NCBI GenBank assembly: GCA_003990765.1
Contig: RBNJ01000341.1
Span: 1 to 32,547, forward strand
Direction: 5' to 3'
DNA from: Jimgerdemannia flammicorona
Lineage: Eukaryota
Length of the DNA: 32,547 bases
Part shown: in pieces, positions 2,901 through 32,547 of the stretch
Layout of the letters: the number at the start of each line of letters is the position of its first letter
Numbering within the stretch: the first letter of the stretch is position 1
Notes under the pieces: model-generated
The model's database searches: none
Seen by the model: only the letters and a program-made list of their open reading frames with translations
What the model was told of the DNA's origin: nothing
Program-made: the position numbers and the translations under genes

Positions 2901-3040
2901 GAAAAGCAGTTTAAAATATATAAACAAAGATAGTTTAGAATATGAGGAGAAGAAGAATTAGTTAATTTATAGTAATAAAGAGTAAGATCTATTTATAAAG
3001 TTAAGATCAATTTTATATAGAGTATATTCTCTATACTTAT

Positions 3041-6173: not shown

Positions 6174-6536
6174 AGATTAGTATAGGAGAGGTCAGTATGA
6201 GAGAGATTGGTATAGAAGAGGTTGGCATAAAGAAGGTCAGTTTAGAGAAGATCAGTATAAGAAAGATTGGTATAGAGGATGTTAACATAGAGAAGATTAG
6301 TATAGAGAAATATAAAAAGATCAGTGTAAAGGATAAAATAGAGATTAATGCAGAGGAGGTTAGTATAGAGGAGGATATAGAGGAAGAAAATATAGAGAAA
6401 AGCAGTTTAAAATATATAAACAAAGATAGTTTAGAATATGAGGAGAAAAAGAATTAGTTGATTTATAGTCATAAAAAGTAAGATCTATTTATAAAGTTAA
6501 GATCAATTTTATATAGAGTATATTCTCTATACTTAT

Positions 6537-8570: not shown

Positions 8571-8573
8571 ACT

Positions 8574-8586
8574 TGGTAGCAGCAGT
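8574..8586 (+). other. Primer-binding site, probably initiator tRNA-Met
   Basis: TGGTAGCAGCAG starts 3 nt after the LTR end; TGGTAGC is complementary to the 3' end of eukaryotic tRNA-iMet. Confidence 0.65.
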
Positions 8587-10599: not shown

Positions 10600-11003
10600 G
10601 ACTTTATTAAGTTAAGGCAAACCACTAAGACTCCAACCAAAGGAAGTCAAAAGGCAGTCAGATATAACCTGTATGTAGCTGAAGAAGTTACAGTTTCCAA
10701 CTGAGAAGTTAAGCAAGTCTATACAGAAATCAGCATCCAAATCCCTGAAGGACATGTTGGAAGAATATACTGTCACAGTAGCCTAGCATTGAAAGGACTC
10801 TCAGTAGAAGGAGGAGTCATTGATGAAGATTACATAAGTGAAATTATTGTCCTCATCCAAAACCATAGTTGGATACTCTTCAAGATCCCTATTGGTTTCT
10901 GCATCATTCAGATCCTATTTGAGAAAATTGAGTCAACTCTGATAGTCAAGGAAGTCTCTGAACTACTATCTACTATCTGAGGATCTAAAGGATTTGGCTC
11001 ATC
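10600..11003 (+). pseudogene. dUTPase domain between Gag Zn knuckle and protease
   Basis: IPEGHVGRI..HSSLALKGLSVEGGVIDEDY.SEI...*GSKGFGSS matches trimeric dUTPase motifs II, III and V. Confidence 0.9.
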
Positions 11004-14000
11004 AAACAAGGCCCCAGCCCAACCTACCACAAATAAAGAAGAACAATTCTACAAGAAAATTGAAGATGGATATATACTTAGTGGCTGATGCCCCCAGGTA
11101 TTGGAATGTACTCTTCTTGAATGATCAATGATTGCTTCTCTTATATCAATAAATTGGCTCAAAGAAGAACTAATAGAAGGAAAGCTCTTACAACTGAAAT
11201 CACCACCATTGAATTAGACAAACTACTTACACTTCAAGTCTTTGTCAACTGAGCATCTGTCAAGATTATGATAGACAGCAGTACCTCAGACAACTTCATC
11301 AATGAAGAAACAGCCAACAGACTCAAGGTCTTCACCTCCCCAATACAACAAACTCAAGCAGTTGCTATAGCTAATAGAACCTCACATATTATTAGCAAGG
11401 AAGTCCACAATCTGCCCTTCTGAATTGGTGACTATCAAGTACATGTTACTCTCCAAATTATACCACTTCCTGATAATGAGATTATTCTTGGAACCCTATG
11501 GTTGAAACAAGAGAACCCTATAATTGATTGGGTGAACTATTCTCTGGCCATCAAGAAAGGATGCCACAACTTCAAACTGTAAGGTAAAAAGAAACCACTC
11601 AACTCTAGTGACTCTGGACCAAAGATCACTCATATCAACAAGCTACAACTCAAGAAATTAGTCAAGAAATGCCCTCTCTTTGCCATCTCCATCTGCTCAT
11701 CCAAAGGAGAACCTGAGAACTCTGAAGAAGACTTTTCCAAAGTTGACAGCCATGTCAGACCACTACTCTAGAAATTCCAAGATATATTTCCAAAGAAGCT
11801 TCCAAAAGGTCTATCTCTTAAACAAGTAGTAGACCATGCCATCAAGACTATTTCAGATGCCAAGCCAGCCTTTAAGTCAATCTATCACATGTCTCCAAGA
11901 GAAATCAATATACTCAAGAAAGAAATTGACAAACTCCTAGAATAAGAATTCATCAGACTCAGTATATCACCTTATGGTGCATTAGTCTGCTTTATTGTCA
12001 AGAAAGGAGGAGACTTATAAATGTGTATTAATTACTAAGACCTCAATGAACAAACTATCAAGAACTGTTGCCCACTACCTAGAATCGATGAAATATTTGA
12101 TAGGCTTATCAACCCACAATTCATAAGCTCTTTTGACCTATAAAATGGTTACTGGCAAATTGCTATAAAAGAAGAAGATATCTACAAGACAGTCTTCTGA
12201 ACTTGCTATAGACATTTTGAATTCCTGGTTATACCCTTTGGCTTAACTAATACTCCTGCAACCTTCTAGACTCTAATGAATACTATCCTACACCCATATC
12301 TGGACAAATTTATTGTTGTCTATATTGACAACATCCTAGTCTTCAGCAAAACTCTGGAGAAACATCTTGAACACCTCAAACTAGTACTACTGAAACTCCA
12401 AGAAAACTAACTCTTTGCAAAACTCAGCAAGTATGAATTTCTTCTGAAGGAAATTCAATTCCTTGGACACATTATTATACCAAATGGAATCAAAGTGGAC
12501 TCTAGCAAAATCTCCACAATTAAGGATTGGCCCAGACCCAAGAAGCTGAAAGACCTCCAGTCATTTCTGGGATTAGCAAACTATTACAGATAATTTGTTG
12601 CCAACTTTATCAAAATTGCCACTACTCTCACCCAAATGACCAAGCATAGCAAGAAAGAAGAATAGTCCTGGACTACAAAACAAGAGAAAGACTTCAACAA
12701 TCTTGTAAATTGGGGACCTGAGTAAGATACTGCCTTTTAAGCACTAAAGAATACCTTGATAACCACTCCAGTACTTCAAGTGGCAAACCCTGCCCTACTA
12801 TATAAAGTTACTACTGATGCCTCTGACTTAGCCCTTGGAGCAGTGCTCATACAAGAAGGATACCCTGTGGCCTATCATTCCTGCAAGTTCAATAATGCTG
12901 AAATCAATATGCAATCCATGAGAAGGAAATACTAGCTATTGTAGACACTCTGATAAAATAGCAACCATACTTAGAAGGAGTACACTTCATGGTATTGACT
13001 GACTACAAGTCATTAGTCAACATCAAGACCCAGGCTACTCTTTCCTGAAAGTAAGCCAGATAGATAAAAGTCCTTACCAACTTCGACTATGAAATCCAGT
13101 ATTGCCCTAATAAGAAAAACATTGTTGCTGATGCAATCTCCAGATCACCTATTGAAGAAGTTATCCAAACTCTCACCTTGGTTACCAACACTATCATAGA
13201 ACAAATTATTATAGCATATGTTGATGATAAGAAAGCTCAAGCATTCCAAGAAATCCTGAGCAGTGACAATGCTAACAAGCATATCTGGTACAACCAATAC
13301 CAACTGAAGGACAATACTATCTACTACAAGAACAGATTGTATGTTTCAAATAACCAAGACCTCTGAAAGACTATCCTATTTGAATGTCATGATGCCCCTA
13401 CAGCTGGACATTTAGGATTTGACAAATGCTATGAAGTTATCTCTCAAAACTTCTATTGGCCCCACATGGCAGATCAGCTAAAGACCTACATCACTTCCTG
13501 TAATACCTGCCAACAGAACAAGTCCTCAACATTAGCAAAACCTAACTTACTCCACCCTATCCCAGTACCATCCACTAATTGAAAACAAATCTCTATGGAC
13601 TTCATTATACAACTACCCCGAACCAAGAACAGGAAAGATACAATTGTTGTCTTCATGGACTATCTCAGCAAACAAGCCTACTTTGTACCAACTACCACTA
13701 CCGCAACAGCACCAGACGTAGCTATACTCTTGTTTGACAATATATTCTGCTATCATGGTCTTCCTAAGATCATTATTAGTGATTGAGATCCAAAATTCAC
13801 CAGCTATTTTTGGAAAGCCCTCCATGTATACCTTGGAACAAAACTTGTACTATCTACAGCATTTTACTCTGAAACTGATGGCCAAACTGAAAGAATAAAC
13901 TGAACTCTGGAACAAATGCTAAGGAACTATGTTTCCTACAGACAAGATGATTGGTATGAACACCTCACTACAGTTGAGTTTACCTATAACAACAGCAAGC

Positions 14001-15009
14001 AAGCCTCTCTTGGAATGACTCCATTCTTCACCAATACTGGACAAAATCCAAATACCCCTTTGACACTTATCCAAACTACTGACAAACTCTCCACAGTTGA
14101 AGCTGTTGAAGAATTCCTGCTCTGAATGTACAATCTAAGCCAGATTGCCATTGAGAATTTATCATGAGCTCAAGAACAACAGTTATAGTATGTTAACCAA
14201 CACTGCTGAGAAGAAACTTTTGACATTGGAGAAAAAGTTCTACTAGACATCCAAGGATATTGAGTTGATAACCTCAAGCACAGACTATCTACAAAGCTGA
14301 ACAGTAAGTTTATTGGACTATTTGAAGTTATTTCACAAGTCTTTAATATCTAACATCTCAAGCAATATAATGAAAATGATGACAAGCTATTCCAAAACTG
14401 GACAACTGAACCACCTACACCTGTCACTATTAATGACCAAGAAGAATATGAAGTTGAACAAATTCTCAACAAACATGGCAATAAGAACCACCCTGAGTAC
14501 CTTATCAAATAGAAAGGTTACCCAATCCATGATGCAATATGGGAACCCAAGACCAATCTCCAGAATGTCAGGAATATGATTCCTTGAACAACTAAAAAAG
14601 AATATCTAACACCTATCAGTATATACTATATATTACCCTCCCAAACATTATAATTATTACAAACAAAATTAAGAACTCAGCAAGTCAAGACAAAAGAATA
14701 CCAACTCTCTAGAAAAACAGCAAAACTGAAAGCAAGCCTATTCTCCCCATATCACTGGTGGGAAATGAGATGTAGATATTTAAGAAGATTCCTTAGAGGA
14801 AATTCTCCAGCAGTAAATAATGTCAGAATTACTTCCAGTGCACAGCATCGAACACACAACTCTTTAACATATGAATCCAATATATTAGGTAACCATACTA
14901 TAAGCATGTCACTTTTTGAGAAAAATGGACTTTACCAGACTTTTGACCTCCCAAATTGTGTAACAATATTAGAACAAATTAGAAGGCCCTGACAAGAATG
15001 TTAAAAGCT

Positions 15010-15022
15010 AAGAAGGGGAGAG
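15010..15022 (+). other. Polypurine tract
   Basis: AAGAAGGGGAGAG immediately before the 3' LTR. Confidence 0.85.
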
Positions 15023-15023
15023 T

Positions 15024-17102
15024 TATAAGTGCATAACTCCCAAGCTACTGAAATCACACATCACCCTCTGAACAAGTCACTGAAATCACATGCAACCTTT
15101 GAACAAATCTGGAAATCACCTGTAAGATTATGAAGCTGAGTCAAACCAAAGTTACAGTATATAAAGCTGAGTTAATATAAAGTCACAGAACATAAGATTT
15201 ACATAAACAGAATCTTACCAATCAAGACCAAATATATATATACCAAGTACCAAGACATGTCGAAACAGAGAACCAAAACAAACAACAACTACAACTTCTG
15301 AACATACACAAACATGACCACTGAGATCTATAACTGCATCCATACTAACATTTGGAATACCATTGTCAACCAAGCCACACCCCCTCTGCCCCTCATGAAT
15401 ATCCATAGTCTAGCACCCCTCTACTTTATGGAAGTCCAATGAAATACCCTGAACATACTTAGCAAAGCTTACCAAATCAGACAAATCTCAAGCTACTACC
15501 AAATCAGCCACCTCCTAGAAGACATGGTTGAATATTACTATAATACAGACATCACTCAGATGTCTCAACATTAGAAACTTATTATCTGCAAATATTGAGA
15601 ACTCTTCTATGAGTATAGTACCTTTATCTCCCACCTTCGAGTTATTATTACTGAAATGGTTGCTACCCTATCTTATGGTCAAATCGATGACATGATATAA
15701 AAACACAATCACAAGTACCTCAAGTATGTTCAGACTATAGACAGAACCTTTCTGCACTCCAATGACCATATCTTACAAATGCCTCAAGTTGGATATGCTA
15801 TGAAGGATATCTATAATATAATCTGGTTTGATGAAGACAAAGCAGAAGATAATAATCTCTCTGATGCCAACATGACCTCCAGCCAAGAATCTCTACCAAC
15901 TCTGATCACACCACCAACCTTGCTGATGAACTTGTAATAGTTCATAATCACTTACAAGACCTACTGGGACAATGACCACTGGCATGAATATTAACCCACA
16001 TTTACCCTCGATTACTTTAACTACAATGAAGAGACCAGAGAACACAACCTGTACCTCCAGACAACTCTTGAGATTGAACCAACCACTCCACCACCTGAGT
16101 ATGAGTGATATGAGCCATAGCTACCAGCTTACTACAACTCTGCAACTCATAGTACTATAACCTATAGAAGATACACAGACAGTAAATCTAATAAAAGTGA
16201 AGATGATGCACCCCTCCTTTATCCATCAATATGTATCTTATCCAGCATATGAGACAGATGATGCTATTCTGTGGGACAGTGATGAAGTTCCAATATATTA
16301 TTACCTCAGTGAACAAGGAGAAATAATCTGTAAGCTACTCTTCCTAGATGACTACTTCATCAAAGATGATGTCATTAATGGTGATATCATCAAAGACTAC
16401 CCAGATAGTGTCTAAACCTATAAATAGCTTAGCAGTCATAGTATAGTTAGATTAGCCTTATATGACATGACTGTAAACTGACTCAGTAGCCAGATGATCT
16501 CTTAACATATCAGATCACACTTGTACTATGTGACTACATTCTGACTTAGTAAGGCACTAAGTGCTACATCCATATCTAGCATAGTTCAGATAACCCCTTA
16601 CTAGTATAAATACCCCCTCCTCCAGACCTCAGAATCTCAGACTTGAACAGACTCGAATACACAAGAACAATCCTGAATACTTTCCTACAATATCTCTTTA
16701 CACAACTACTTCTAGTATAGTAATATTATAAATAGCGAATAAATCTATTTAATAACCCACAAACTACTCTTAAGTAAATCTACTCCCTGTTAGGTCTCAC
16801 TTCTAACTCCATCATGAAATTTCCTAATTGGGTATTATCTGCAAAAATATGTCAATTCAACTAAGCTGGTCTTAGTTTCTTGAACTTTCTGAAATATAGA
16901 AAATCCTGAATATTCAGAACTAGTCTGAAAAAGGACTTTGATTGAGATGTTAACTTAATCTTGAAATCAATAAGCATAGAGAATGTACTTTATATGAAAT
17001 TAATCTTGACCTTAAGAAAACAGTCTTCCAGAATATCCAGAACTTCCAGAAAATCCTTCCAGAACTATATAATAGTTACCCTAAAAAGTAAACCTTCTTA
17101 CA
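15024..17102 (+). repeat. 3' LTR of family-1 element
   Basis: TATAAGTGCA (decayed TG) ... CTTACA; colinear with the 5' LTR; followed by the TSD. Confidence 0.92.
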
Positions 17103-17227
17103 CTTATTGATTTTAAGATTAGATTAATATCTTAACTAAAGTTCTTTTTTGGACTTATTCTAGATATTCAGAATTTTCTATATTTTAGAAAGTTTAAAAA
17201 ACTAAGACCAGCTTAGTTAAATTGGCA
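17103..17227 (-). mobile_element. Old antisense family-1 LTR fragment (insertion target; other half at ~6494-6536)
   Basis: Matches 4239-4363 of the antisense solo LTR, while the sequence just before 6537 matches ~4200-4243. Confidence 0.8.
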
Positions 17228-17253: not shown

Positions 17254-18784
17254 ATTTTGGCCATTATGACAGACAATGCCACAAATAACTCAATATTTTT
17301 CCAAGTTTTAGCAGTCAGTCTCAAATAGGAAAATGTGGCCTTTGGTGCAGAAAGCTGCCATGTATGATATCAGACCCATGTACTGAACCTTGCTATTCAG
17401 AACTATCTTATGCACATAGACAAAACATCTGAGAGAGGAGGGGCTCTGAGTATAATTTCCAAGCTATACAAACTAGTTATATCAGTCTGATTGTCTCTAT
17501 AATGATGAGACAAATTTGCTACATAGTATAGGGTAATTATTTTAGCCCCAAAAGAGCTTATATTGGATATCTGTATGTATTGAAACTTAACATTTGTAAT
17601 GATCTAGTATGTGCTGGAGTTTGCTGTGGTATGCATTCTTTTTTTCTTCAGTTGGCTGAAGCAACTTATTTTGGATGATTGAAGATTTATTTTTAAAAAA
17701 AAAAAAAACAAAAAAAGCTAATAGATTCAACAGTGGCTGCTGATAAAGAAATATGGGCCAAGGCTCTAGGTGAAAGTGAGTGAGACATACTTAGGAATAT
17801 TGTCAGAGTTTTGAAAGTAAGTGGTAATTGCTCTGGCTCCACACTCATTTTGTCTACCTCTACACTCATTTTGTCTGCCTCTGCATAATACAATACCTCA
17901 CCACATATAACTGTCAGTGTTTTGATGATTGTATGAAGGATATAGTCAAACAAATGACTCTGACAATAAGCTCTGCAATATCAGTATACAACCTTTTGAT
18001 TGACCAGCTAGAGGACAAGCTCAAGGATAGGCTGGAGAGTTGTAGTAATTTATAGTTAAGCCCAGATCAGAGAGATGCTGTTGAGGTTGCTCTAAGCAAG
18101 CTCAGAAAATACTACTCCCAAACAAATACTGTTATATACTCAATCAGTACAGATATGTTGATATTGGTATGTAGCTATTACCCCTTTAAAAATAGAGAAA
18201 CCCCTGCAAAAACTCACTCTCCTTTTCTTCAAATAGTGTTGGACCCATGCTTAAAGCTACAATACCATAAAGGTCAGAGCTAAGAGTAGTATTTTATTGA
18301 GAGAACCAAGTAAGCTATAATTGAAGTATACTGGAAATTCCAGCTGAAGTCCAGATGAATATGCTGAGAGATCTCTTCTGTTCCACATTTACTTCAGCAG
18401 ATAGAAGAAGAGGGAGTCATTAGTGGAAGAGCTGCTATCAATAGAAAAACTTATCATTTACCTTGCCAGTAACTGCATGATCCTACTGGAGGGCATGGAG
18501 GTACTCAACTGGTGGAAGGTAGGTTGTCAAGCAGACATTGGGCCAATTTAACCCATCAATCTAACTACTGCTCTACCTACTGGAGTATGTAGCTATATCA
18601 AATGGACTTCTCCAGCCTATATGATATGGCTCAGGACTACCTGGTAATTCCTACCTCCAGCACTCCTGTTGAGTGGGTGTTCTTAGGTAAGGTGGACCTC
18701 ATTGCTCCAAAGAGATATATACTGAATGCTGAGACAATCCAGGCATATATGTGTCTGAAGTCTTGGTGGGGCTTGGGCCACTAA
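17254..18784 (+). pseudogene. hAT-superfamily transposase, 5'-truncated, intron-containing, decayed
   Basis: ILAIMTDNATNN; HV*YQTHVLNLAIQ (decayed RCxAHxxNL); LILDICMY*NLT (decayed DVxTRWNST); SKLRKYY; VLDPCLKL; VLNWWK; dimerisation domain MAQDYLVIPTSSTPVEWVF...ETIQAYMCLKSW. Confidence 0.9.
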
Positions 18785-19679: not shown

Positions 19680-22221
19680 ATATAAGACTGCCCAACCTAT
19701 ACAAAATAACTATCTAACTCTCACAAAAGATTGCTTAATTCTCATGAAAGATTGTCTAACTCTTACAAAAACTGCTCCACCTGCCAATCTCAGGCCTTGA
19801 TGAGCCTATCATCTGTTATGAGTATGATAACTATTGTATCTGAGCTCTCCTCAAAGACAATAGTATCATGGTGGTTATGTGGTTAGAATAGGACAGCTGT
19901 GTTGGCCACAAACAGAATCCCAAAACTATAGGTAAGGTCATATCAGACTTCACTGCTATCCTCCCAAGTTGGGCCCTTCCTTTTCAGGATGTAAAACATT
20001 ACTGAGGTGACATTGTTATCTGTGTGTGTGGGTAGAGAAACATTATGCCTGATATATCCTAATGTAATATGAGTGTACAGTTGGGTGAACCCTTGGCTCA
20101 GGACCTCATACTACCAGACTATGCTAATAGATACCTACCCTTGGTTCAGCCCTAGGAGCCCCAGCTTAGAAACCTGTCAAAATGGATAGCAACTGGTTAG
20201 TCCTTTTTACATGTGGGGGGGCAGAAACCCCTCAGGCTACAGAAACCCTCTGGGCTGTAGTACCCAAAAAAGCAGACCTCCTCACCTCATATGGTATGCT
20301 AAATTGTACCAAGAATGTATATATAGCTGCACTGAGATCACTACTAAGCTGGTCTACTGTACATTCTACCAATCTGCTCAAAGAACCCCAGATCATAGCT
20401 GCCATCACTGCATAGGCCATGTTGTGCTCATGTACAGTTTGCTCTTTGACAGTACTTCTAAAGTTTCAGTAGGGGTACAGAATCTTGTGTATCTCTAGAA
20501 TTGTATCAAAAAGAGTATATTAGCAAAGAATGTGATTTATCTGAAGAGGAGTAAAAAAAAAAGAGAGACAAGTGCAGAGGATTTCAGAACTCTAGAACCC
20601 ACCCTTCACTAGTATTGCAGTATACCCAATTCCTGTCCAAACCCCCCCTTCTTGCTTTTTTTGCCCCCTCTTTCCTGCCACCCAGTATTTGATACAATCC
20701 TCACAAATCTCATTAATGTGGTGGCAAAGCTTGTCACTGTAGAGGTTCTTTACCACCATTGCAACCACCTCTCCATATTTTTTAATAATGATATAGTTCT
20801 CTTCATCATTGGTTACTCCTGCTGGCCAATAGACCCCTTGGTCAAGAATGATTGGCTCTGATTCAAATATAGACTCCCAAGCCTTGATAATAATGCTGAT
20901 ACTACTTATGCTGAACATCTTGCCCTTAAATTTCTCTATTTGATCAGATGCTGGATGTAGTTGAACTCAGGTAACTTTGAACTCTCCTTTCCAATAGAAC
21001 TGAGCCCTAATCTGAGGGACCAAGATAAGTATTTGGACAGGTTACATGTGGACAGATTGTATGCAGATGAATTGTATATAGACAGATTACATGCAGATGG
21101 ATTGCATGCAGATGGATTGTATGTGGGTGAGTTGTATGTGGATGAGTTGTATGTAGGTGTAGGTATTTTTTAGGGGGAGACTACATAAAAAATGAAATTA
21201 AATAAAACATAGAGATAGGTATTTCAGAAAAAGAGTATGAGTGAGTGAGTGAGTGAGCTGCATACTGGTGAGTTACATACCAATGAGTTACATGAGTTGC
21301 ATAAGATTGCTCATGAAGGCTTACTTCTGTTCCTTTTGAGACCTCCACCATATGATACATTGACTCAACAGCTCAGTCACCAAAGGCATACTCTGCAATA
21401 TCTGCCAGCCTTTCTTCATCTTGACCAGATGTTGTGAATAAAGTCAGCAGATCTTGCTGTAGAGCTGTGGACCCTAAGAAAAGTACAAGGTAAATTGGGT
21501 TGTACTGGGGAAATTTAAATAAACACAAGTAAATAAATGGTGGCCAAGTGAGCAACCTACATCTACTATCAGCTGCTCCAAAAAGGCTGCTGTGTACATA
21601 GCTGTGAGATCTGTGAATTCTGAGATCTGATGGATCACCATGAGTTGTTGCTGGAATTCTCTCTCATCCCTGCTATCAACTACCATTACTACTGCTATTG
21701 CCACTGCTATCATCATCACCATCACTACTGCCATTGCCACCACTATCACTCCTTTGACTCTTGATGAGCAGCTTGTGTGCTGCCCATATAAGAAAGAATC
21801 TAACATTGTCAGCAGAGAGTGTGTTTCCACCTTGAATACTCCCTCTTTTGATGATCATTGCAGGGTGAAAAATGAGTAGACTGGACTAATATATGAATTA
21901 AGGACTGCTGTTTTATTTACTTATGATGCAGTAGGAAAGAACAAAGAAAAGAACAAAAGAAGAGAGAGAACAAAAGAAAAGAGTGATGTCACTAAAGTGT
22001 GATAGGAAAAAAAAAAACAAGAGCAAAATGAACAAAAGAAAGGGTGATGTTATTATCAAAGATTTCAATCCAGATGAATCAATCCAGATGGATCAATCTG
22101 GATGGATCAATCTGAATCAATCTGAATCAATCTGGATCAGATTATGAGACTAATCTAAGTTGATTCAAATTCATCACATAATGAATCTTATCTGGATTAA
22201 CTCCATCTATTTGGAGCACTA
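19680..22221 (-). mobile_element. Old, CpG-decayed copy of a cargo-carrying DNA transposon (one terminus at 22221; other end not located)
   Basis: ~21030-22221 is the reverse complement of 31312-32547. Homology stops exactly at GGAGCACTA, and the flank is an unrelated LTR fragment. Decayed ATCCGG subterminal repeats at 22060-22200. Confidence 0.8.
19763..21924 (-). pseudogene. Multi-exon transposon cargo gene, putative TET/JBP-like 2OG-Fe(II) dioxygenase; reliable exons 21011-20603, 20494-20286, 20173-19763; 5' exons ~21924-21561 and ~21473-21320 less certain
   Basis: Phase-consistent GT-AG introns with CTAA branch sites. Last exon reads LYTHITLGYIRHNVSLPTHTDNNVTSVMFYI...WEDSSEV*Y...GILFVANTAVLF*PHNHHDT...TIVIILIT, i.e. 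HxD (20018-20026) and a distal His ~50 aa later (19868-19873). Confidence 0.6.
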
Positions 22222-23160
22222 AGTATAAGTGTAAACTGATATATCAAGAGATTATCTGGCTACTGAGTCAGTATACAGTTATATAATATGAGACTAATCT
22301 AACTATACTAATAATTGCTAAGCTATCTATAGATTTAAATACTATTTGGGTAGTCTTTTGATGAGATCATTATTGATGATATCATCTTTGATTAAGTTTG
22401 AGCAGTTTTCTAACTTCTGATATCATCAGTTTCAAAGATATTATCACATCTGCCTCTTGTAAAATTAGAACTATTCTTAGTAAAGATGATTGTATAGGAA
22501 TAGTAGGTCTTAGTTCTCTTTTTTTTTTAGACTATTGGTATATTTGTGAGAACTAACCATTCTTGTCTAGGGTAAGAGCTCTCATTGTTATAGCTGGGGG
22601 TTTGAACCTCTTGAAAATGATATTTTCTATAATCTGAGGTAATTTCTAGTAGTAATATCTGTTATATAGATAGACTTAAGATTGGTTTCAACAATATCAG
22701 CTTTCTTGAGTTTCAGATAAAATATCTATTATTCTCCAATAGAGGTAATATAGATAGAGTGAATAGAGTTATTTAAATATATTTTACTTCTATTAGTAAT
22801 AAGATCTTATATAGTTATAGTGTATCTTAGTCTTAAGTATAAGTATGGTTTATGAATCTTTAATAAATGAGATAGGGTTCTTCTTATTTCAGTTTGAGTT
22901 TTGATACTTTAGTTTTCTTTTATAATAGTATAGTATATCAAGACTAGTTGTCTAATAAGTAGAGGTTCAAAGTCAGTTATATGATCATAGTATTTTTTTT
23001 AGCATTCTTATATCTTGGCAATAAATCCTCATACTTATTGGTATACTTTGTATAATCAGATAATCTCTTCAGTAACTCATTTTGTGATCTTATATATAGT
23101 TTTTAAATTTATTCTAAGAATGATATATAATTTCAGTAGTTTGAAGATTATATGCTTATA
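22222..23160 (-). mobile_element. Old antisense LTR fragment related to family 1
   Basis: 22222-22395 aligns by eye with 4676-4848 (TATCAAGAGAT..CTGAGTCAG..CTAATCTAACTATACTA..GGGTAGTC). The rest is diverged and the right boundary is approximate. Confidence 0.55.
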
Positions 23161-23164
23161 CATA

Positions 23165-23345
23165 TAATCTGAATCACTCAATCTGAATTACTTAATTCAA
23201 ACTACTCAATCCAAATCACTCAATCTAAATTACTCAATCTAAATAATCATTCAATCTGAATTACTTAATCTAAATTATTCAATTTGAATTATCTCATTCA
23301 AATCATCTAATCTGAATCCATTAATTCAAAATTTTCAATTCAAAT
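23165..23345. repeat. Decayed ~13-bp tandem repeat (ATCTGAATCACTCA-like)
   Basis: More than ten imperfect units; resembles fully deaminated ATCCGG-type subterminal repeats. Confidence 0.6.
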
Positions 23346-23369
23346 TCTCTATATAACTCATATACTAGA

Positions 23370-23497
23370 TACATTTATACAAATATATATACACATAAAT
23401 ACATATGTATATAAATACATATATATGCAAATATACATATATGCAAACACACATATATATATAAATATATATATAAATATATAAATATAAATATATT
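23370..23497. repeat. (AT/AC)n degenerate microsatellite
   Basis: ATATATACACATAAATACATATGTATAT... low-complexity tract. Confidence 0.7.
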
Positions 23498-24181
23498 AAC
23501 AGATCAGTCTTTAATAGTTCATAATACTGATGATACTTCAAGTTAAATATCCTCAATAGTTCCATACTTTCTATGTAATCCTTACTCTGAAATCTGACAA
23601 CATTGTGCTAAGATTGAAGATAATATTATTTATAATTATTGTAGATAAAAAATTAAAAAAATAAGATGTATTTATGATATAACTAATACTTTTGTTTAAT
23701 ATACACATAATGTTATTTCTATTAACCTCTATATATGATATAGCCAGAAGTTCAAAATATTTAGTGAGTTAACTTCAAACATATACATATCAATATATAA
23801 AAGACAAATACTCTGACAAATCAAGAAGAATACAAAAACAAATAAAATTGATATTCAAGCTATAGTAGATATATTTATCTGATTGTCTGACCAATTCTAT
23901 ATCAATAATCAAAAATATTTAGTCATATTTTTCAGTAGAATTTTGAAATCAACTTATTTACTAGATTGTATATATAGATCAATTATTCACAACTATTGAG
24001 AGTAACCAGTTGTATAGCATCTTTGGTCTCCTTAAGTATGATTTATATCTGCTAAATACCAATACTATTTACAAAGATATCCTAGAGATCTATAGAAAAA
24101 AATATAATAATCTACCAGATACTTCAGATAAAATAAATAAATAAGAACAACACTATGACCATTGCAAGTTTAATTATATAT

Positions 24182-25564
24182 TGTAACAGTGACCCCAGAA
24201 TGATGACATCAGCATAGGAGACAGCCTTTTTTTACAAGCCACCAGATCGGAGTACAAGAAGATCATATGGCATACGAGATGAGCAATGATGACCAACTGT
24301 AAGTCATTGTGACCACAGCACAAGCATCCTGAAGAATATAAAAGAAGGACCAAGGAACTGCAGTAGCAGCAACTAACAAGAACTACCAATCTCAAAATAG
24401 CTCAAAGACTTACCACAAACAAAATGCCTGCTGCCTGCCAAACCTCAAGGTCAAGAAATTACCAAGGTATCTCGGTCAAGGAAAGGATGTTCCAAGACAT
24501 CAGAAGAGCCATGAGGACCTGCTCAAGAAGGACTCCTAGCATCAACCTGGGTACTACAGACCCCTATCACTTCATTTTCTACTGCCACGAAATGGAAACA
24601 AGGATCACTATTGCCACCGAATGCCTCCAAATGTGGCAGGAGTATGAAATAGGAAACCTCCTCTGCTGGGAGTTCCCACAGACCAGCCCTCAAGAGCTAC
24701 AAGATGCCACTCCCATGGACCTACGTGAGGCAAGGATAGCAAAGAAGATCCATCAGATCTTCAGGCATGCACCATGGTTGATCCCCAACTTGGAGTATGT
24801 TAGAGTCTCAGACTTCAGAGACCTGTCATCCTGCTGTATCAATGCACTAGAAGCCAGGGTAGCTACAGAAGCCCAGTCCACCATCACCCTCAATAGTAAA
24901 GAAGTAGAAGACTTCTGGCACCCTATCCTTCAGGACAACCCAGACCAATTTCTACAAGGATTGATCTCAGTATTCCAAGGCCCAAGCATCCAGGTCAGAT
25001 CTCCTCAAGAGCTCACATTTGTTCCTTATTTTGTGAAAGAGAACCTCATAGACTGGAGAGCTTCAGATCTTGTCCCCGATTTCCCCACCAAACATGATAA
25101 CGTCATCGGTGATGATGTCATCCTGCGCGACATACCACGCGAAGTACATGAAATACATGGCAATGAAGTACGTGAGACATGCAGCCTGCATGACGAATTT
25201 GTGGACCTCATCTCCTTCAGTGATGATGATGATGAAGCTCCCATGGTCCTGAACTTTCTGCTCTAAGTTCTTTGTTATACTGGATAATGCCAGCACTGGT
25301 ATTCTCATATAACACTGGATAATGCCAGCCCTGGAACTTAGTAGTTTTAGTTATTGGAATTTATATTTAGCTTTATATCTTAGCAACCATTGAATTATAT
25401 TTTATATAAATACCTCTCTTATTTCCTCTGAAATAAAGTCAGTCAAGTTCACTTACACACACTTCCTTGCAAGCAATCTAAGAAATAACAAGACAGTTAA
25501 AGATAAGAAGTTTGAGGACTATAAGATCTTAAGAAGGCACTCCAATAAGAACTTGCTTATAACA
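24182..25564 (+). repeat. Probable 5' LTR of family 2 (3' boundary uncertain)
   Basis: TG start; TATATAAATACC at ~25403-25414; AATAAA at 25432; candidate end TTATAACA. No second LTR is available to confirm, and no clear PBS. Confidence 0.55.
24424..25266 (+). CDS. Intact 280-aa LTR-region accessory ORF, homologous to the family-1 LTR ORF; function unknown
   Basis: ATG-to-TAA open frame upstream of the TATA box; shares YEIGNLL and IAKK..QIF.....LIPNL..........LS...IN pattern with the family-1 LTR ORF. Confidence 0.7.
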   Translation: MPAACQTSRSRNYQGISVKERMFQDIRRAMRTCSRRTPSINLGTTDPYHFIFYCHEMETRITIATECLQMWQEYEIGNLLCWEFPQTSPQELQDATPMDLREARIAKKIHQIFRHAPWLIPNLEYVRVSDFRDLSSCCINALEARVATEAQSTITLNSKEVEDFWHPILQDNPDQFLQGLISVFQGPSIQVRSPQELTFVPYFVKENLIDWRASDLVPDFPTKHDNVIGDDVILRDIPREVHEIHGNEVRETCSLHDEFVDLISFSDDDDEAPMVLNFLL

Positions 25565-25759
25565 ACTTGAGTTAGTCTAAGAGATACACCTTGAAGAGAA
25601 TCTGGCATATTTGAAGGACTCAATGGCCACTACATGACAACTTGGTGCCTATTGGCTGGTGATTCAAGATAAATCCCTCACTTTCAAGCTAAAAAATGAA
25701 CAACCCCACAACAACTACCCTGACTACAAGAGTCACCCCCTGCAAGAATTTAAGATAAG

Positions 25760-28700
25760 ATGGAAATGCATCCCCCTATATTCTATAGATATACTACTGA
25801 AGAGTCAATCCTGACCTTCATTGAAGACTTTGAACAATTTGCCACCATATGAGCCCTTGGTGTGGATGCTCAATTGGCCCTTCTATTAGTCAGCCTCAGA
25901 GGACCTGCCAGAGACAAGTTCAATGCAGCCACCATTGCTGATACTGGTACAGCCAAACTTACCAATATGAAGGCCTTCCTCAGAACAACATATTATATCA
26001 AAGAGATCAAGCAAGCTCTTAAGGATCAACTCAATACTATCTGCCAGGGACTTAGTGAAGATCCCAACTCATTCTATACCTGAATTTACCACCAGATTGT
26101 CTTGGCTGGCTATGATGATCACCTCAAAGAACAAATAGCAGATTCAACCTTCCTCAAAGGAGTTCACTCTGAAATTGCTCTAGCAATCTGGTCTACCTCA
26201 GCTGTACTGACCCTTGATCAGAAAGTGGTCTTTGCACAGAGATATTGGACTGCCAGACACCTTGCCAAACTCTCAATGGAGAAAATAACTGGCATCAAGA
26301 TGGAGCCATCAAAGCTAACTAGTATCTTACCTACCATAGTTGTAAACAGACAACCAATCCCACCTACCCCCAAGACAGCCAAAGCTGACCCAGTGGAAGA
26401 ACTTGTCAAGCAGTTCACTGAGATGACTGCACACCTTGGTGATGTTGTTAGAGAAGTCTGAAGCATCAACAGGAGACCAGTGCAGAGATTTGCAGCTGCT
26501 ACAGAAGAACACAATAACATCACATGCTTCAGATGTAAAGAAGAAGGCCACTATGCAAAGAATTGCATGACTGAAACAAGACGCAAAGCCCAACCAAGCA
26601 ATGCTAGCAGAACCAGAGAACAAACCAATACAGTAGTCATTGAGGAGATTGGTGACACTGATGATGAAGAGTATTACGAGGAGCTCGAATTCTACCCTGC
26701 TACTGAAGGTACCAGAACCTGGTCCAAGCCCTATGACAAGAAGAGCAACAGCAAGCCAGTTGGAAGACCAAAAAAGACTCCAGCTGTCACTATTCAAAGC
26801 AAGACCCAACATGAGGAGATTGATCAAGACATGGAGTTAGATGAGGCTGCCCACCAAATCATCGAAGGTACTACTCCAGTCTCAGGAGAAAGCAAGAGCA
26901 AGAAGGAACAGAAGCTGCGCAAGACCAAGATCCACCAGTATGACATCTACAAGGACCTCAAGGAACAGAAGATCAATGCCACTTTTGGGCAGCTAGCTGA
27001 AGTCCCTGCCTTCAGACAGCAGTTGAGAGTAGGACTTACAACTACTGTCAAGAATCAAGAGTATAAGATTGTAGAAGTTCACAATGCACAAGAAGAATCT
27101 GAGAACTCAGGTGAAGAATCTGAAGACCAGCACAAGACATCAGCCTATACCCCCTGCCAGATTGAAGACTGTATCTTTGATGCCATCATTGATACTGGTG
27201 CTGGAGGATGCCTCATGAGCAAGAAAGCAATTGACTACCTAGGTTGGGACATTGAAGAGTCCACCAAAATGGTCTATGTCACAGCAGACGGTATACAAGC
27301 TACCCCTCTTGACAAAATCCGAGAAGTCTCCATCAAGATAGGAGGAGCTACCATCCCAGTAGATGTGATTGTTACAAGCACCACCAACTATAACATCCTC
27401 ATCAGCAACCAATGGCTTCACAAGGCCAAGGCCATCATTGACCTCAATGCCCAGAAGATGCAGATCAACTACAGAGGAAGAAAGGTATGAGTTTCTATCA
27501 ATGTCCACAAAGGAGTCCTGCCAGACATGGAGGAAGGAGATGAAGAAGACACAGAGGTCTTCATGCACTTGGTGAACAAGAATAAGAACAAGACACCCAA
27601 GCTCACAGATGAGCAGTGGTATAACAAGATCATCGATGGGTATGCCCCTCAAGGAAGATGCCCCCATGGTACTAGAATGTACTGCTCTGAACACCTGAAT
27701 GACTACTGATCCTGTATCAGTGAAGTCAGGAAAATCTGCCAACAAAAATATGAGCAAGAAGCTGCTGAAGCAAAAAGGAAAACTGAAGAAGATGACCAGC
27801 CCCCAGAGCTTCAAGCTGACAGTGATAATGAGGAGGAACAAGAACCAGACATCACTCTCAAGGTCAAGAAGTTTCACCCTGAAGCCAAGATCCCCGAATA
27901 CAAGACTGAAGGAGCCATAGGAATGGATCTTGCCAGCATCCAAGATGCTACTCTCGAACCACAGACCACTACCCTACTTGGCACTGGAATTGGAGTCAAG
28001 TTGCCAGAAAACCACACCAGAATTATCAAGACCAGGAGCAGTCTGACCAAAAGCAAAATCTCAGTTGAAGGAGGAGTAATTGACCCTGATTACACTGGTG
28101 AGATTTTTCTCATAGTCAGAAATCACAACCACACCACTCCCTTCGAAGTCAAGAAGTATAACAGGATTGGCCAGATGCTGATCCACGAAATCAAGAAGCC
28201 CAAGATCATAGAGGCCACTGAGCTTATCAAGACCAAGAGAGAAGAACAAGGCTTTGGATCTACTGGAAGAGGAGCCTATGCTGCCACCAAGATTACTGAA
28301 CTTGAGCACAAGAAATACAAGGACCAGAGCAAGCACATATATACTATTGGAGAAAACTTTCCCTTAGAGGAACAACTTCTCAAGATCCTGTACTAGAACA
28401 AAGGAGTACTTACTACAGACTTTAGGGATATCCATAATCAAGAACCCAAGTACCACCATGAAGTTGACACTGGTGATACCAAGCCTATCTACCAGAAAGC
28501 CAGACCCATACCACCTGCCTACAGAGAGTGGCTGCGAGCCAAACTCAAGGAAATGGAAGAAGCTGGAATCATCAAGCAAGCTATCAGCCCCTGGGCCTCA
28601 CCCATTGTCCTTGCTCCGAAGAAAGGAAGCAAGCCTGGAGAGTTTGCACCAAGACTCTGCATTGACTACAGGAAACTCAATGCCATCACCAAGAAGGATA

Positions 28701-29788
28701 GGCAGCTCTTGCCAAATATTCAAGAAATCCTTACCACTCTTGGAAGTGAAGCCAAATACTACACCACCTTGGATCTGTTCTCAGGCTTCCATCAGATCAG
28801 TCTCACTCAAGATGCCAGTGAGAAATCAGTCTTCATCACACCTGATGCCACCTACATCTATCTGTAAATGCCATTTGGAATGTGCAATGCCCCAGCAAGT
28901 TTCCAGTGAATGATGAACAGAGTCTTCAGCAATGAGATTGGAAAATGGCTCTTTATCTATGTTGATGATGTGATCATCTTCAGCAATACTGCACAGGAAC
29001 ATATCAATCACATACAGCTAGCCCTCAAGAGGCTCAAGGAGCATGGCCTCTACATCAAGCCCAAGAAATGCAAGTTTGCAGCTCAAGAAATCACCTACCT
29101 AGGACACCTCATCAACTAGACTGGAATCCACACAGACCCTATAAAGATCAAGACTGTTGCAGCCTACCCAAGACCCAGAACAACCACAGAAGTCCATGCC
29201 TTCCTTGGACTGGCCAGCTACTACAGAAGATTTATCAAAGGATACTCCAACATTACAGCACCTATCTATGAGCTACTGAAGAAGCAGACCAAATTCGAAT
29301 GGACCAAGGAGTGCCAAGAAATCTTCAATGAACTCAAGACCAGGTTGACCCAAGCACCCATCCTCAGAAGACCAGACTGGAACCTAGAATTCATCCTGCA
29401 GACAGACACGAGTGCTATAGGACTTGGAGCAGTCCTAGCTCAGAAGAAAGATGGACATGAATATGTCATCTCCTATACAAGCCGAGATACCTGCAGAGCA
29501 GAACAGAACTATGAGTCATGCAAGCTTGAATGCTTAGTGGTAGTTTGGGCAGTAGATAAGTTCCACTACTACCTAGCTGAAAAACACTTCACCATTCAGA
29601 CAGACCATTCCACTCTTGCCTGGCTATTCCACACTCTGAACCCCAAAGGAATATATACCAGATAGATCTACAGGCTGCAAGAATATGATTATACTATCAA
29701 GCACTGCCCAGGAAAGACCAACACCAATGCTGATGTACTCTCAAGGATACCCCAAAACATCCCCATCAAGACTATTCAACATGAATAA
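25760..29788 (+). pseudogene. gag-PR-dUTPase-RT-RNaseH polyprotein in a single frame with about ten premature stops
   Basis: MEMHPPIF..; CFRCKEEGHYAKNC; IIDTGAG; dUTPase 27857-28267 (GMDLAS, RSSL, GGVIDPDYTGEI, GFGSTG); SPWASPIV, RLCIDYRKLN, LDLFSGFHQI, YVDDVII; LQTDTSAIGLGAVL, TDHSTL, NADVLSR. All ORF-track pieces share one frame. Confidence 0.94.
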
Positions 29789-31028
29789 GGAGCTATACTA
29801 TAGATTAATCAGCTATCTTGGGCAGCGGAAGATGCCCAACCACCTCGAACCCTGAACAATCACCATTATCAACTGGACTTAGAAACAGTTTGAATTAGAC
29901 AACACTACACTCAGAAAAGGAGGAAAGCTAGTAATACCTGAATATAAGAAATATCAAGTAATGAAGGAAGTACATGAGCAAGGACACTTAGGAGGAACTA
30001 ACACATATGATAAGACAAAAAGAACCATGTGGTGGCCCAAGATGGAAGAAGACCTGTGCCAATTTATCAAAGGGTGTGACAAGTGCCAAAAACAGAAACA
30101 AGATCAGCAAGACCAGGCACTCGGATCATCAAGAATTGAGCCTATCCCCTTCCACCACATCGCAATGGATATCATTGGACCACTACCAGTAACACTATCA
30201 GGAAACCACTATATTATAGTTATTGTAGACCTCTTCACCAAATGGATAGAGGCAGGAGCATTACAAGAAGCCAATGCCCTCTCTATAGCCAATTTCCTAC
30301 ACTGAGAAATCATCTACCACTACAAGACACCAAAGCAAATCACAACAGACCGTGGTACAGAATTTGTCAATGGATTCCATAAGATAATATACCAGAAATA
30401 CAAGATCCAGCACATCAAGACCACTGCATACCACCCTCAAGGAAATGGACAGACAGAGAGAACCAACAAGACCCTCAAGAACATCCTAGCAAAGATCTCA
30501 GAGACATATGAGAATTGGGATAACTATCTCCCAACTGCCCTCTCTGTTCTATGAGACATATGATCACAGAGCACACATTTTATCCCAAGAGAGCTGCTCT
30601 TTGGAGAAGAAGATTCTAATGGAACCTCAGCCACAAATCTAGATCTAACTTGGAGACAGATTGATGTAGAAATCCGGAGACTACACCAAATCAGGAAGAA
30701 GGCTGAAGATTACATCACCAAGTTACAAGTACTGATAAGAAAGAATGCAGAAAAGAATCACAAGGTCCTAGAATCCATCTGAATTGGAGAAAAGGTTCTA
30801 CTATATCGAAATATGGTAGAAGCCTCATAGTCACGAAAACTGGAGCCCAAATGGGAAGGACCCTTCTACATGCAAGATATCAAGAGAACTATCTTCTGGC
30901 TTAGAAAAATCTCAGGGACCATACTGCCTACCACGGTACATAGGAACAGACTCAAGAAGTACCACAAACCTATACAAGAGAAGCAAAACATGATGACCAC
31001 CCATGAGGTTCTAGTCTATGAATCGTAA
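29781..31028 (+). pseudogene. Integrase in a separate reading frame with its own ATG
   Basis: MNKELYYRLISYL...HEQGHLG...CDKCQK...AMDIIGPLP...TDRGTEF...AYHPQGNGQTERTN...KLEPKWEGPF...VHRNRLKKY; 416 codons with a few stops; no chromodomain. Confidence 0.9.
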
Positions 31029-31311
31029 CAGCATGTCCCATGACCAGCAGGCTATCTGTCTAGACCATTCTCTAAGGGATACGACACTGGCAACTACTTA
31101 TCCGTGAAGACTTTCGCAGTCAGAGGAGTTCGAACCGTCAACTGATTGGTCAAGATCAGAATCAGGCCCTTGCTCTATATAAAGGGAGCGACCCTTCACC
31201 ATCACGCCAAAATACAAAGAGAAGACACCAGCCCATAAACACCAGTTTTCGACCTCTTGTCAGAGGTTATGGGATCAGCAAATTTTTCAGGACTGGACTA
31301 ATGAATAAGGA

Positions 31312-32547
31312 TAGTGCTCCGAATGAATGGAGTTGATCCGGATGAGATTCAATTCAGATTCGTCATGTGATGGATTCAAATCAACTCGGATTGGTCTCGT
31401 GATCTGATCCGGATTGATCTGGATTGATCTGGATTGATCCATCTGGATTGATCCATCCGGATTGATCCATCCAGATGATCCATCTGAATGATCCATCCGG
31501 ATGATCCATCCGGATGATCCATCCGGATTGACCCATCCGGATTGATCCATTCGGATTGAAATCTTTGGTGACATCACCCTTTCTTTTGTTCATTTCGCTC
31601 TTGTTTTTTTTTTCTGCCGCACTTTGGTGACATCACTCTTTCCTTTGTTCCCTCTTTTTTCTTTGTTCTTTTTCTTTGTTCTTTCCTGCCGCATCATGAG
31701 CAAACAAAACAGCAGCCCTAAATTCATACATTGGTCCAGTCTACTCATTTTTCACCCTGCAATGATCGTCAAAAGAGGGAGTATTCGAGGTGGAAACGCA
31801 CTCTCTGCTGACAATGTTAGATTCTTTCTCATATGGACAGCACACAAGCTGCTCATCGAGAGCCAAAGGGGTGATGGTGGTGGCGGTGGCAGTGGCGATG
31901 GTGATGGCGATGGCGGGGATGAGGGAGAATTCCGGCAACAACTCACGGTGGCCCTTCGGACCTCGGAATTCACAGACCTCACAGCTATGTACATGGCAGC
32001 CTTTTTGGAGCAGCCGATAGTAGATGTAGGTTGCTCACTCGGCCGCCACTTGTTTACTTGTGTTTATTTATTTAAACTTCCCCAGTACGACCCAATTCAT
32101 CTCGTGCTTTTCTCAGGGTCTACAGCTCTACGGCAAGATCTGCTGACTTTATTCGCAACATCTGGTCAAGATGAAGAAAGGCTGGCGGACGTTGCGAGGC
32201 ATGCCTTTGGTGGCTGAGCTGTTGAGTCAATGCATCGCATAGTGGAGGTCTCAAAAGGAACAGAAGCAAGCCTTTGTGAGCAATTCTTGTGCAACTCGTG
32301 CAACTCATCAGCGTGCAACTCGTCGGCATGCAACTCATCAGCATGCAGCTCACTCACTCATGCTCTTTTTCTGAAATACCCATCTCTGTGTTTTATTTAA
32401 TTTCATTTTTATGTGGTCTCCCCCTAAAAAAACACCCACACCCGCACGCAACCCGCATGCAATCCGTCTGCACGCAACCCGCCTGCCCGCACGCAACCCG
32501 CCCGCACACAACCCACCCGCAACCCGCCCGCATGCAACCTGCCCGCA
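31312..32547 (+). mobile_element. Young CpG-rich copy of the cargo-carrying DNA transposon (terminus, subterminal repeats, 5' part of cargo gene); runs off the window
   Basis: Begins TAGTGCTCCGAATG; dense GATCCATCCGGATT repeats at 31400-31560; inverted homolog of 21030-22221 with many CpGs retained. Confidence 0.85.
31696..32275 (+). pseudogene. 5' exons of the cargo (putative dioxygenase) gene in the young copy
   Basis: ATG at 31696 or 31762; open frame to 32217 with a Gly/Asp tract; intron-like segment ~32026-32116. The frame of the second exon is ambiguous because each frame has at least one TGA. Confidence 0.45.

Follow-up and report, generated by a model that had tools for sequence, protein, structure and literature searches.

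The stretch of DNA analyzed here (the window) comprises the 32,547 nucleotides of contig RBNJ01000341.1 from Jimgerdemannia flammicorona, and it contains two families of Ty3/Gypsy retrotransposon, referred to as family 1 and family 2, in which an open reading frame (ORF) is found inside the long terminal repeat (LTR). An initial annotation had proposed that these two ORFs encode homologous accessory proteins, and a computational analysis of that proposal is reported here. The family-2 ORF (24424 to 25266, forward strand; product P0001) is, on the evidence of sequence comparison, a genuine protein gene under purifying selection, and the N-terminal domain of its product is probably homologous to that of the family-1 protein. 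The features of the family-2 element are listed below. The signals at 24337, 25432 and 25642 were read from the sequence, and L001 is a metagenome contig that carries a relative of the gene.

24182 to 25639, forward strand: family-2 5' LTR (1458 bp, TGT...ACA)
24337 to 24344, forward strand: TATAAAAG, candidate promoter of the LTR gene, 87 nucleotides before the ATG
24404 to 24423, forward strand: 20-nucleotide leader immediately before the ATG, the same in L001
24424 to 25266, forward strand: family-2 LTR gene P0001 (280 codons plus stop), with a basic N-terminus, a predicted helical core and an acidic, predicted disordered tail containing DLISF and LNFLL
25403 to 25414, forward strand: TATATAAATACC, the LTR TATA box of the initial annotation, which contains the TATAAATACC common to family 1; a promoter or a 3'-end efficiency element
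25432 to 25437, forward strand: AATAAA, candidate poly(A) signal
25642 to 25660, forward strand: TTGGTGCC, similar to a primer-binding site (PBS), two bases beyond the LTR end
25751 to 31025, forward strand: family-2 gag, protease (PR), dUTPase, reverse transcriptase (RT), ribonuclease H (RNase H) and integrase (INT), decayed, assigned from frames and Pfam
31026 to 31320, forward strand: family-2 3' untranslated part, with a break near 31312-31320, about 30 nucleotides short of the polypurine tract (PPT), and no 3' LTR

The ORF spans LTR bases 243-1085 and lies entirely within the repeat. As the initial annotation had stated, it is open for 280 codons and contains the protein strings quoted there. 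Relatives of P0001 in public data are 28-85% identical to it. A word-indexed search with P0001 returned five relatives (57-81% identity), and an exhaustive profile search of 1.84 billion representatives returned only five clusters, with open frames of 138-342 amino acids and identity to P0001 down to 28%, a figure taken from the 10-sequence family-2 alignment. Other loci related to P0001 were absent from a first metagenome scan and from a scan of viral contigs, and a second metagenome scan found L001 alone, which has a 291-codon relative with 38% identity. In L001 a 33-nucleotide direct repeat (170-202 and 1481-1513, 82% identical, 1311 nucleotides apart) is found on either side of the ORF, and the two copies may be repeat units or LTR-internal repeats.

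The initial annotation had staked its proposal in part on purifying selection on this frame, and the comparison with L001 bears this out. Identity between the window ORF and the L001 ORF at codon positions 1, 2 and 3 was 0.478, 0.623 and 0.391, and over residues 22-215 the proportion of nonsynonymous differences (pN) was 0.41 and that of synonymous differences (pS), which is saturated, was 0.71. The codon-position pattern and pN/pS therefore point to selection on the protein and not on the DNA. Conservation varies along P0001: close relatives hardly differ in residues ~140-215, variation with in-frame insertions and deletions marks residues 216-262, and DLISF and LNFLL (or near variants) were present in all seven family-2 proteins scanned, which are a hand-picked set. 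The frame of P0001 contains no stop in 280 codons, where about 3.0 would be expected at the rate of the gag-pol region of the same copy (P ~0.05), and an open frame inside a decayed copy is suggestive only as a sign of constraint. That intactness is only mildly unexpected could be taken to mean that there is no gene here, with a frame open by chance or with conservation belonging to cis-acting LTR DNA such as enhancers. This explanation is extremely improbable: it must contend with frames that stay open at 28-42% identity, with second codon positions being the most and third positions the least conserved, and with a variable tail whose insertions and deletions leave the frame intact in those members of the 10-sequence alignment that have the tail.

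The family-2 element that carries this LTR has gag beginning near 25751 and pol finishing near 31025. Pfam placed a zinc knuckle and an aspartic protease at 26480-27490, a dUTPase at 27923-28396 (E 7e-23), RNase H at 29345-29665 and an integrase at 29961-30305; the matching families were zf-CCHC, RVP_2, dUTPase, RT_RNaseH, Integrase_H2C2 and rve, and RT was identified through similarity between the two families of element. The order gag(CCHC)-PR-dUTPase-RT-RNaseH-INT read from these matches is that of a Ty3/Gypsy element (Metaviridae) with a dUTPase. The gag-pol region is decayed: its 1751 codons are interrupted by 19 in-frame stops, and the frame changes once, near 29900.

Because self-blastn found no second copy of 24182-25639 in the window, the window alone cannot prove that this segment is an LTR. 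Metagenome contigs from three DNA-type runs (X1, X2 and X3) and from one run of uncertain type (X8) were compared with the window over 23800-31400. In X2 and X3 contigs the match begins at 24182, with a purine-rich tract (...AGGAGGAAGA) just before it, and in one X1 contig the start of the same tract is located after 31312. An X2 contig runs from 31312 into 24185 across an intervening 33 letters, and two X8 contigs agree with the window up to 25640 and diverge afterwards. It follows from these junctions that in other copies the internal region is about 30 nucleotides longer and is followed by a polypurine tract and then by sequence beginning at 24182. The repeat at both ends of the element is represented by these contig junctions and the PBS-like TTGGTGCC only, no full-length second copy having been seen, and the LTR ends at 24182 and 25639 are supported by the metagenome contigs.

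The window copy of family 2 has lost its 3' LTR through a break near 31312-31320. A pair of inverted repeats of about 1 kb, 82-84% identical (21156-22188, forward strand; 31356-32442, reverse strand), flanks an AT-rich stretch and the family-2 element and includes runs of GGATTGATCC-like units. Since the element breaks off just ahead of the right repeat arm, a rearrangement probably removed the 3' LTR. Directly upstream of the LTR, a 14-nucleotide tandem repeat (23144-23345) is located in a very AT-rich stretch (GC content 0.21-0.28 over 22001-24000). The depth of X1 contigs was about 2-3x higher on the LTR than on the internal part, but depth is not copy number and was not used as evidence. 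Contigs of X8, which is only guessed to be RNA, were present at high depth on the LTR (bins 24054-25831) and almost absent from the internal part, while the DNA-type runs X1-X3 cover both. Transcripts of the LTR only, solo LTRs or a different internal region could all produce this pattern, and no conclusion on expression or copy structure was drawn from it.

The second ORF belongs to family 1, of which the window holds a complete element and further LTR copies. The corresponding features are as follows, with the target-site duplication abbreviated as TSD.

6537 to 8570, forward strand: family-1 5' LTR (2034 bp), TSD CTTAT at 6532-6536
6707 to 6714, forward strand: family-1 TATATATA, 79 nucleotides before the family-1 ATG
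6786 to 7883, forward strand: family-1 LTR ORF in the 5' LTR (P0010), 365 codons in one frame with 8 in-frame stops
8073 to 8082, forward strand: family-1 TATAAATACC, 190 nucleotides beyond the ORF stop, with AATAAA at 8206-8211
15024 to 17102, forward strand: family-1 3' LTR, with the PPT at 15003-15022 and TSD CTTAT at 17103-17107
15314 to 16415, forward strand: family-1 LTR ORF in the 3' LTR, with stops and one frameshift
4788 to 5885, reverse strand: family-1 LTR ORF in the inverted LTR copy 4110-6174 (P0009), one frame with 7 in-frame stops
3320 to 4111, forward strand: family-1 LTR ORF in the truncated LTR copy 3028-4111, from self-comparison

The complete family-1 element extends from 6537 to 17102 and has the TSD CTTAT on both sides. 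Its two LTRs are 87.5% identical by self-blastn, and the PBS TTGGTAGC is located two bases past the 5' LTR (...ACA, AC, TTGGTAGC at 8573). With direct repeats, TSD, PBS and PPT all present, these segments are LTRs. The claim that both ORFs lie inside LTRs is proven for family 1 by this evidence; for family 2 it is backed by the contigs at both LTR ends, the window itself having no family-2 3' LTR.

The 365-codon family-1 frame, with its ATG at LTR base 250, is present in all four family-1 LTR copies, and all of them are broken by stops that arose through transitions, although a single frame is retained in P0009 and P0010. The initial annotation had relied on a reconstruction of this protein. 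The strings that it quoted were found in all four copies, each with in-frame stops, and the reconstruction is sound, as the intact natural relatives in public data, P0011 (247 amino acids, 64% identical) and P0016 (128 amino acids, covering the N-terminus), carry R, Q or W at the window stops. At the stops of P0009, arginine is present in P0016 at five positions, glutamine in P0011 at one, and tryptophan in both P0010 and P0011 at one. All of the stop-making changes in P0009 are transitions, which is consistent with how strongly CpG is depleted in the elements (observed/expected 0.04-0.28 in the retrotransposons versus 1.04 in the host exon region). That the LTR ORFs might have been copied from the gag or pol of the elements that carry them was rejected, all tblastn matches for six queries having E values of 0.046 or worse.

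Three further observations concern family-1 LTR copies. A 176-bp fragment at 22222-22397 (reverse strand) matches, at 79-85% identity, the segment of the family-1 LTR in which the ORF ends (4676-4849, 7822-7995 and 16354-16527). Tandem repeats with a 15-nucleotide unit are located at 2644-2823 and 6170-6319, just upstream of two of the LTR copies. The segment 2677-4111 duplicates 6173-7577 (90% identical), with the tandem-repeat flank included and the inverted LTR copy 4110-6174 between the two, and because the flank is shared, the duplicated segment is larger than the LTR.

The two LTR families have no similarity at the DNA level by blastn (word size 11, E 1e-5), in agreement with the initial annotation, and the comparison of the two ORFs was made at the protein level. 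Pairwise, the result was marginal. A tblastn search of the window with P0001 gave E values of 0.9-10 only, and BLASTP of P0001 against P0009 gave two collinear matches with E values of 0.034 and 0.056, while against the intact P0016 the E value was 0.003. In Smith-Waterman comparisons, the observed score for P0001 was reached by 25-27 of 1000 shuffles, and those for P0002 and P0003, two other family-2 members, by 43-326 of 1000. Comparison of profiles was more informative as the alignments were enlarged. With hhalign, 6 against 3 sequences gave an E value of 0.052 over 27 columns, 10 against 3 sequences gave 0.0029 over 123 columns, and 10 against 6 sequences gave 0.0026 (P 0.0026) with a score of 30.2 over 123 columns, in which residues 22-147 of P0001 are aligned with residues 9-132 of P0009. 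The score climbs as more distant family-2 members join the profile. None of 230 column-shuffled family-1 alignments, which form a lenient null, reached a score of 30 (mean 14.1, standard deviation 2.1, maximum 22.3), and the reversed family-1 alignment scored 13.9. When all sequences were aligned jointly with MAFFT, the same register as that of hhalign was recovered independently.

What the initial annotation had presented as one alignment of the two proteins is retained in part. The N-terminal portion of about 123 columns is supported at the level of profiles, where no column shuffle reached its score; the pairwise alignment is not robust, and it weakens with other family-2 members. The second BLASTP block near the C-termini (YFVKENLID... 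versus YFIRDDVID..., E 0.056) was not recovered by the profiles, and the C-terminal halves showed no significant similarity in profile comparison (score 15.5, reached by 11 of 150 shuffles). The two ORFs could on these grounds be unrelated genes that were acquired independently, with an N-terminal likeness due to chance or to shared helical composition, and the hhalign probability of only 12%, the shallow profiles (effective number of sequences ~1.5-2) and the marginal pairwise statistics would agree with such an origin. This is possible but doubtful, as it leaves the profile score that no column shuffle attained, and its growth with profile diversity, to be accounted for, and also the agreement in ATG position and flanking signals between two elements that both have the rare order PR-dUTPase-RT. 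Homology of an N-terminal domain of about 125 residues between the two families is the likely explanation.

The homology gains weight because of the layout that the two LTRs have in common. The ATG is at LTR base 243 in family 2 and at base 250 in family 1. The motif TATAAATACC follows the ORF stop by 137 nucleotides in family 2 and by 190 in family 1, with AATAAA then at 25432 and 8206, respectively, so that the position assigned to both ORFs by the initial annotation, upstream of this motif (25403-25414 and 8073-8082), is correct. In both families the LTR ends in ...ACA, followed by AC and then by TTGGT, which gives the same LTR end, spacer and PBS layout. Further weight is added because both elements place the dUTPase between protease and RT (10594-11067 in family 1; 27923-28396 in family 2), despite an identity of only ~32% between the families in the aligned dUTPase and RT stretches.

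In terms of what the proteins are, searches for a known family or structure, which the initial annotation had suggested, gave no usable match. Pfam assigned no family to P0001 or P0009, and a profile search of Protein Data Bank (PDB) sequences gave no match at E values up to 10. PHROGs matches had an E value of 0.093 at best, and the best score in the ESM Atlas was 0.88 to unnamed clusters. The Pfam family ATG5_HBR, seen at E values up to 1 in three of ten members (best E 0.028), was too weak and was disregarded. AlphaFold2 models made from alignments of 10 and 13 sequences had low confidence, with a predicted local distance difference test (pLDDT) of 49.1 and 45.6, and in them P0001 tends to be helical at residues 18-185 and disordered at residues 216-280. 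The first 50 residues of P0001 have a net charge of +6 and the last 65 (216-280) a net charge of -13, and P0009 is net negative throughout, which agrees with the acidic character that the initial annotation had ascribed to both proteins. For an acidic trans-activator, composition alone is known, namely the basic N-terminus, the acidic tail and the disorder in the low-confidence models. No membrane segment was detected in these proteins (maximum Kyte-Doolittle value over 19 residues 1.27). Likeness to Sag, which would call for a membrane glycoprotein with Sag similarity, was not found, P0001 having neither a Pfam family nor a transmembrane-like segment.

Two elements that precede the ATG, a TATA element and the leader, recur in L001. 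The TATAAAAG found 87 nucleotides before the ATG in the window is also found 80 nucleotides before the ATG in L001 (296-303), and the 20-nucleotide leader is the same at 20 of 20 bases, despite the proteins being only 38% identical. From this conservation TATAAAAG is inferred to be the promoter of the LTR gene. Its position allows either a separate promoter within U3 or a long R region, and the U3 placement of the ORF depends on which TATA, that at 24337 or that at 25403, drives the genomic RNA.

If TATAAAAG at 24337 were the sole promoter of the element, the ORF would be located in an R region of ~1.08 kb and would be the first cistron of the genomic RNA before gag, and the TATATAAATA/AATAAA region would be a 3'-end signal only. 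U3 would then have an ordinary size of about 190 nucleotides. The TATA element ~80-87 nucleotides before the ATG, conserved in the window and L001, and the TATA-like element at -79 in family 1 would fit such a model, as would the resemblance of the family-2 TATATAAATA, with AATAAA 20 nucleotides on, to yeast-type efficiency and positioning elements. However, scanning ribosomes would be blocked before they reach gag by an ORF of 280 codons that has A at -3, the gag start being 1327 nucleotides past the ATG. In family 1, the distance of about 130 nucleotides from TATAAATACC (8073) to AATAAA (8206) suits a promoter that precedes an R of normal, short length. We know of no LTR element with an R of ~1 kb, and this model is considered unlikely.

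Alternatively, the ORF might have no promoter of its own and be read from the U3 of the 3' LTR on a spliced subgenomic RNA from the main promoter, as retroviral ORFs in or overlapping U3 (sag of mouse mammary tumor virus (MMTV) and lentiviral nef) are expressed. An AG is present 23 nucleotides before the ATG (ctcaaaatag), but no polypyrimidine tract precedes it and no donor and acceptor pair was identified. The conserved TATAAAAG and leader fit a local promoter better, and expression of this kind is very unlikely.

The preferred reading, with a rough probability of 0.55, is that of an accessory gene cassette borne by the LTR, old within this Gypsy clade, with its own promoter and a trans-acting product. 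Each LTR of the two distant dUTPase-bearing Ty3/Gypsy lineages would hold a self-contained accessory gene, in which a TATA element ~80-87 nucleotides before the ATG is followed by a short leader, an ORF of 280 or 365 codons, and the region with TATAAATACC and AATAAA. The product would be soluble and outside the known protein families, and its N-terminal ~125-150 residues would form a helical domain. As this domain is probably common to both lineages, the two would have received the gene from one ancestral element and not through two captures. The remainder of the protein would be fast-evolving, acidic and probably disordered, ending in family 2 in the conserved hydrophobic-acidic motifs DLISF... 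and ...LNFLL. Transcription would start at the gene's own promoter inside the LTR and terminate at the LTR poly(A) site; either LTR of an element (5' or 3') and any solo LTR could therefore express the gene, and the dose would rise with the number of LTR copies. The protein may regulate the element in trans or serve it as an adaptor, with the acidic tail most plausibly recruiting host factors that activate LTR transcription or counter silencing. The position within the LTR, the constraint on the coding frame, the TATA and leader conserved upstream and the layout common to the families are drawn from the sequence comparisons; the separate transcript, the placement in U3 and the activity of the protein are the parts of this proposal that we infer.

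Several points weigh against this reading, in addition to the marginal pairwise statistics, the low hhalign probability and the dissimilar C-terminal halves described above, the choice between U3 and R, and the absence of a family-2 3' LTR from the window. The proposed activity has no support from any family, fold or motif-library match, and the helical domain of the initial annotation rests on weak models. The close intact copies are partly an effect of ascertainment, since protein databases hold open frames only. L001 and the database relatives are on short contigs and may or may not belong to LTRs.

A wider form of the proposal is that the dUTPase-bearing Ty3/Gypsy clade has long carried an autonomous LTR gene that has a promoter of its own, relies on the terminator of the LTR and is expressed from solo LTRs, with a dose that reflects the number of LTRs and a product that regulates the whole family in trans. 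This product might activate the elements or counter their silencing, or it might have the opposite role of controlling copy number. Taken together, this set of claims is speculative and rather unlikely to hold in full.

Elsewhere in the window, bases 1-700 of the forward strand (e.g., 330-665) contain one or more host exons of a pyridoxal-dependent decarboxylase similar to sphingosine-phosphate lyase (Pfam PF00282, E 2.3e-07), and bases 1-2000 have a GC content of 0.53 and the CpG observed/expected of 1.04 given above for the host exon region. At ~18578-18767 (forward strand) there is a remnant of the C-terminal dimerization domain of a hAT transposase (PF05699, E 8e-08), its frame interrupted by stops. 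Rfam and tRNA scans gave no match, and an ESM Atlas search with the host exon pointed to no useful taxon.

Retroviruses provide examples of genes that lie within an LTR or overlap one, among them MMTV sag, lentiviral nef and the bel genes of foamy viruses. The gene described here resembles MMTV sag in being a protein ORF within a long LTR, which places it at both ends of an integrated element. It differs in that Sag is a type II membrane glycoprotein, whereas the LTR proteins here have no hydrophobic segment or Pfam match, and in belonging to a Ty3/Gypsy element of a non-vertebrate host, with a local TATA box that suggests a promoter of its own. The foamy-virus protein Tas/Bel1 is similar in being an accessory protein of about 300 residues, encoded in the 3' end/U3 region, with a separate promoter and an acidic C-terminal part. 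In contrast to Tas/Bel1, with which no sequence or fold match was found, the gene here is wholly inside the LTR.

Among Ty3/Gypsy elements, those of plants carry extra ORFs. Passages of published reports describe additional ORF3s in bdelloid rotifer elements, together with a dUTPase between PR and RT (PMC5408684), an 'add. ORF' in fungal elements (PMC2864245), and the CERV protein of Cer1 of C. elegans, which is made from a spliced mRNA (PMC10309623). Like the gene described here, these are lineage-specific accessory genes with an unknown or regulatory function, and the bdelloid and basidiomycete elements have the PR-dUTPase-RT arrangement; unlike it, they are located, in the passages cited, upstream of gag or downstream of pol in the region that the LTRs enclose, and not within the repeat itself. 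A likeness in gene order was noted to basidiomycete dUTPase-bearing Ty3/Gypsy elements of the PosPlaTy3-5 type, for which the order PR-dUTPase-RT is given (PMC2864245) and is the same in both window elements. An ORF borne by the LTR is not mentioned in the passages cited from that report, whose supplementary structure table could bear on the point (PMC2864245). In a search of full-text literature, with subscription journals outside its coverage, none of the papers returned describes a protein gene within the LTR of a Ty3/Gypsy retrotransposon, whether fungal or not, and this does not prove that no such description exists. A paper on crapaud and a Blumeria preprint had no bearing on the question.

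In LTR retrotransposons, accessory genes as a rule lie between the LTRs; a conserved gene inside the repeat would be copied at each insertion and left behind in solo LTRs. If the LTR-borne cassette is real, 'dead' LTRs would have to be seen differently, since they could still supply the protein in trans, and there would be a natural dosage link between copy number and the regulation of the element. If, in the wider form of the proposal, the gene is autonomous, it would survive recombination between LTRs, and the intact ORF in the dead, 3'-truncated family-2 copy would be a working gene. Genes of this kind would be missed systematically wherever annotation pipelines mask LTRs. Should the gene be common to lineages that are only ~32% identical in RT and dUTPase, it would be old and maintained, and it would offer a tractable candidate for retroelement regulators of a new class, in a host that is not a vertebrate.

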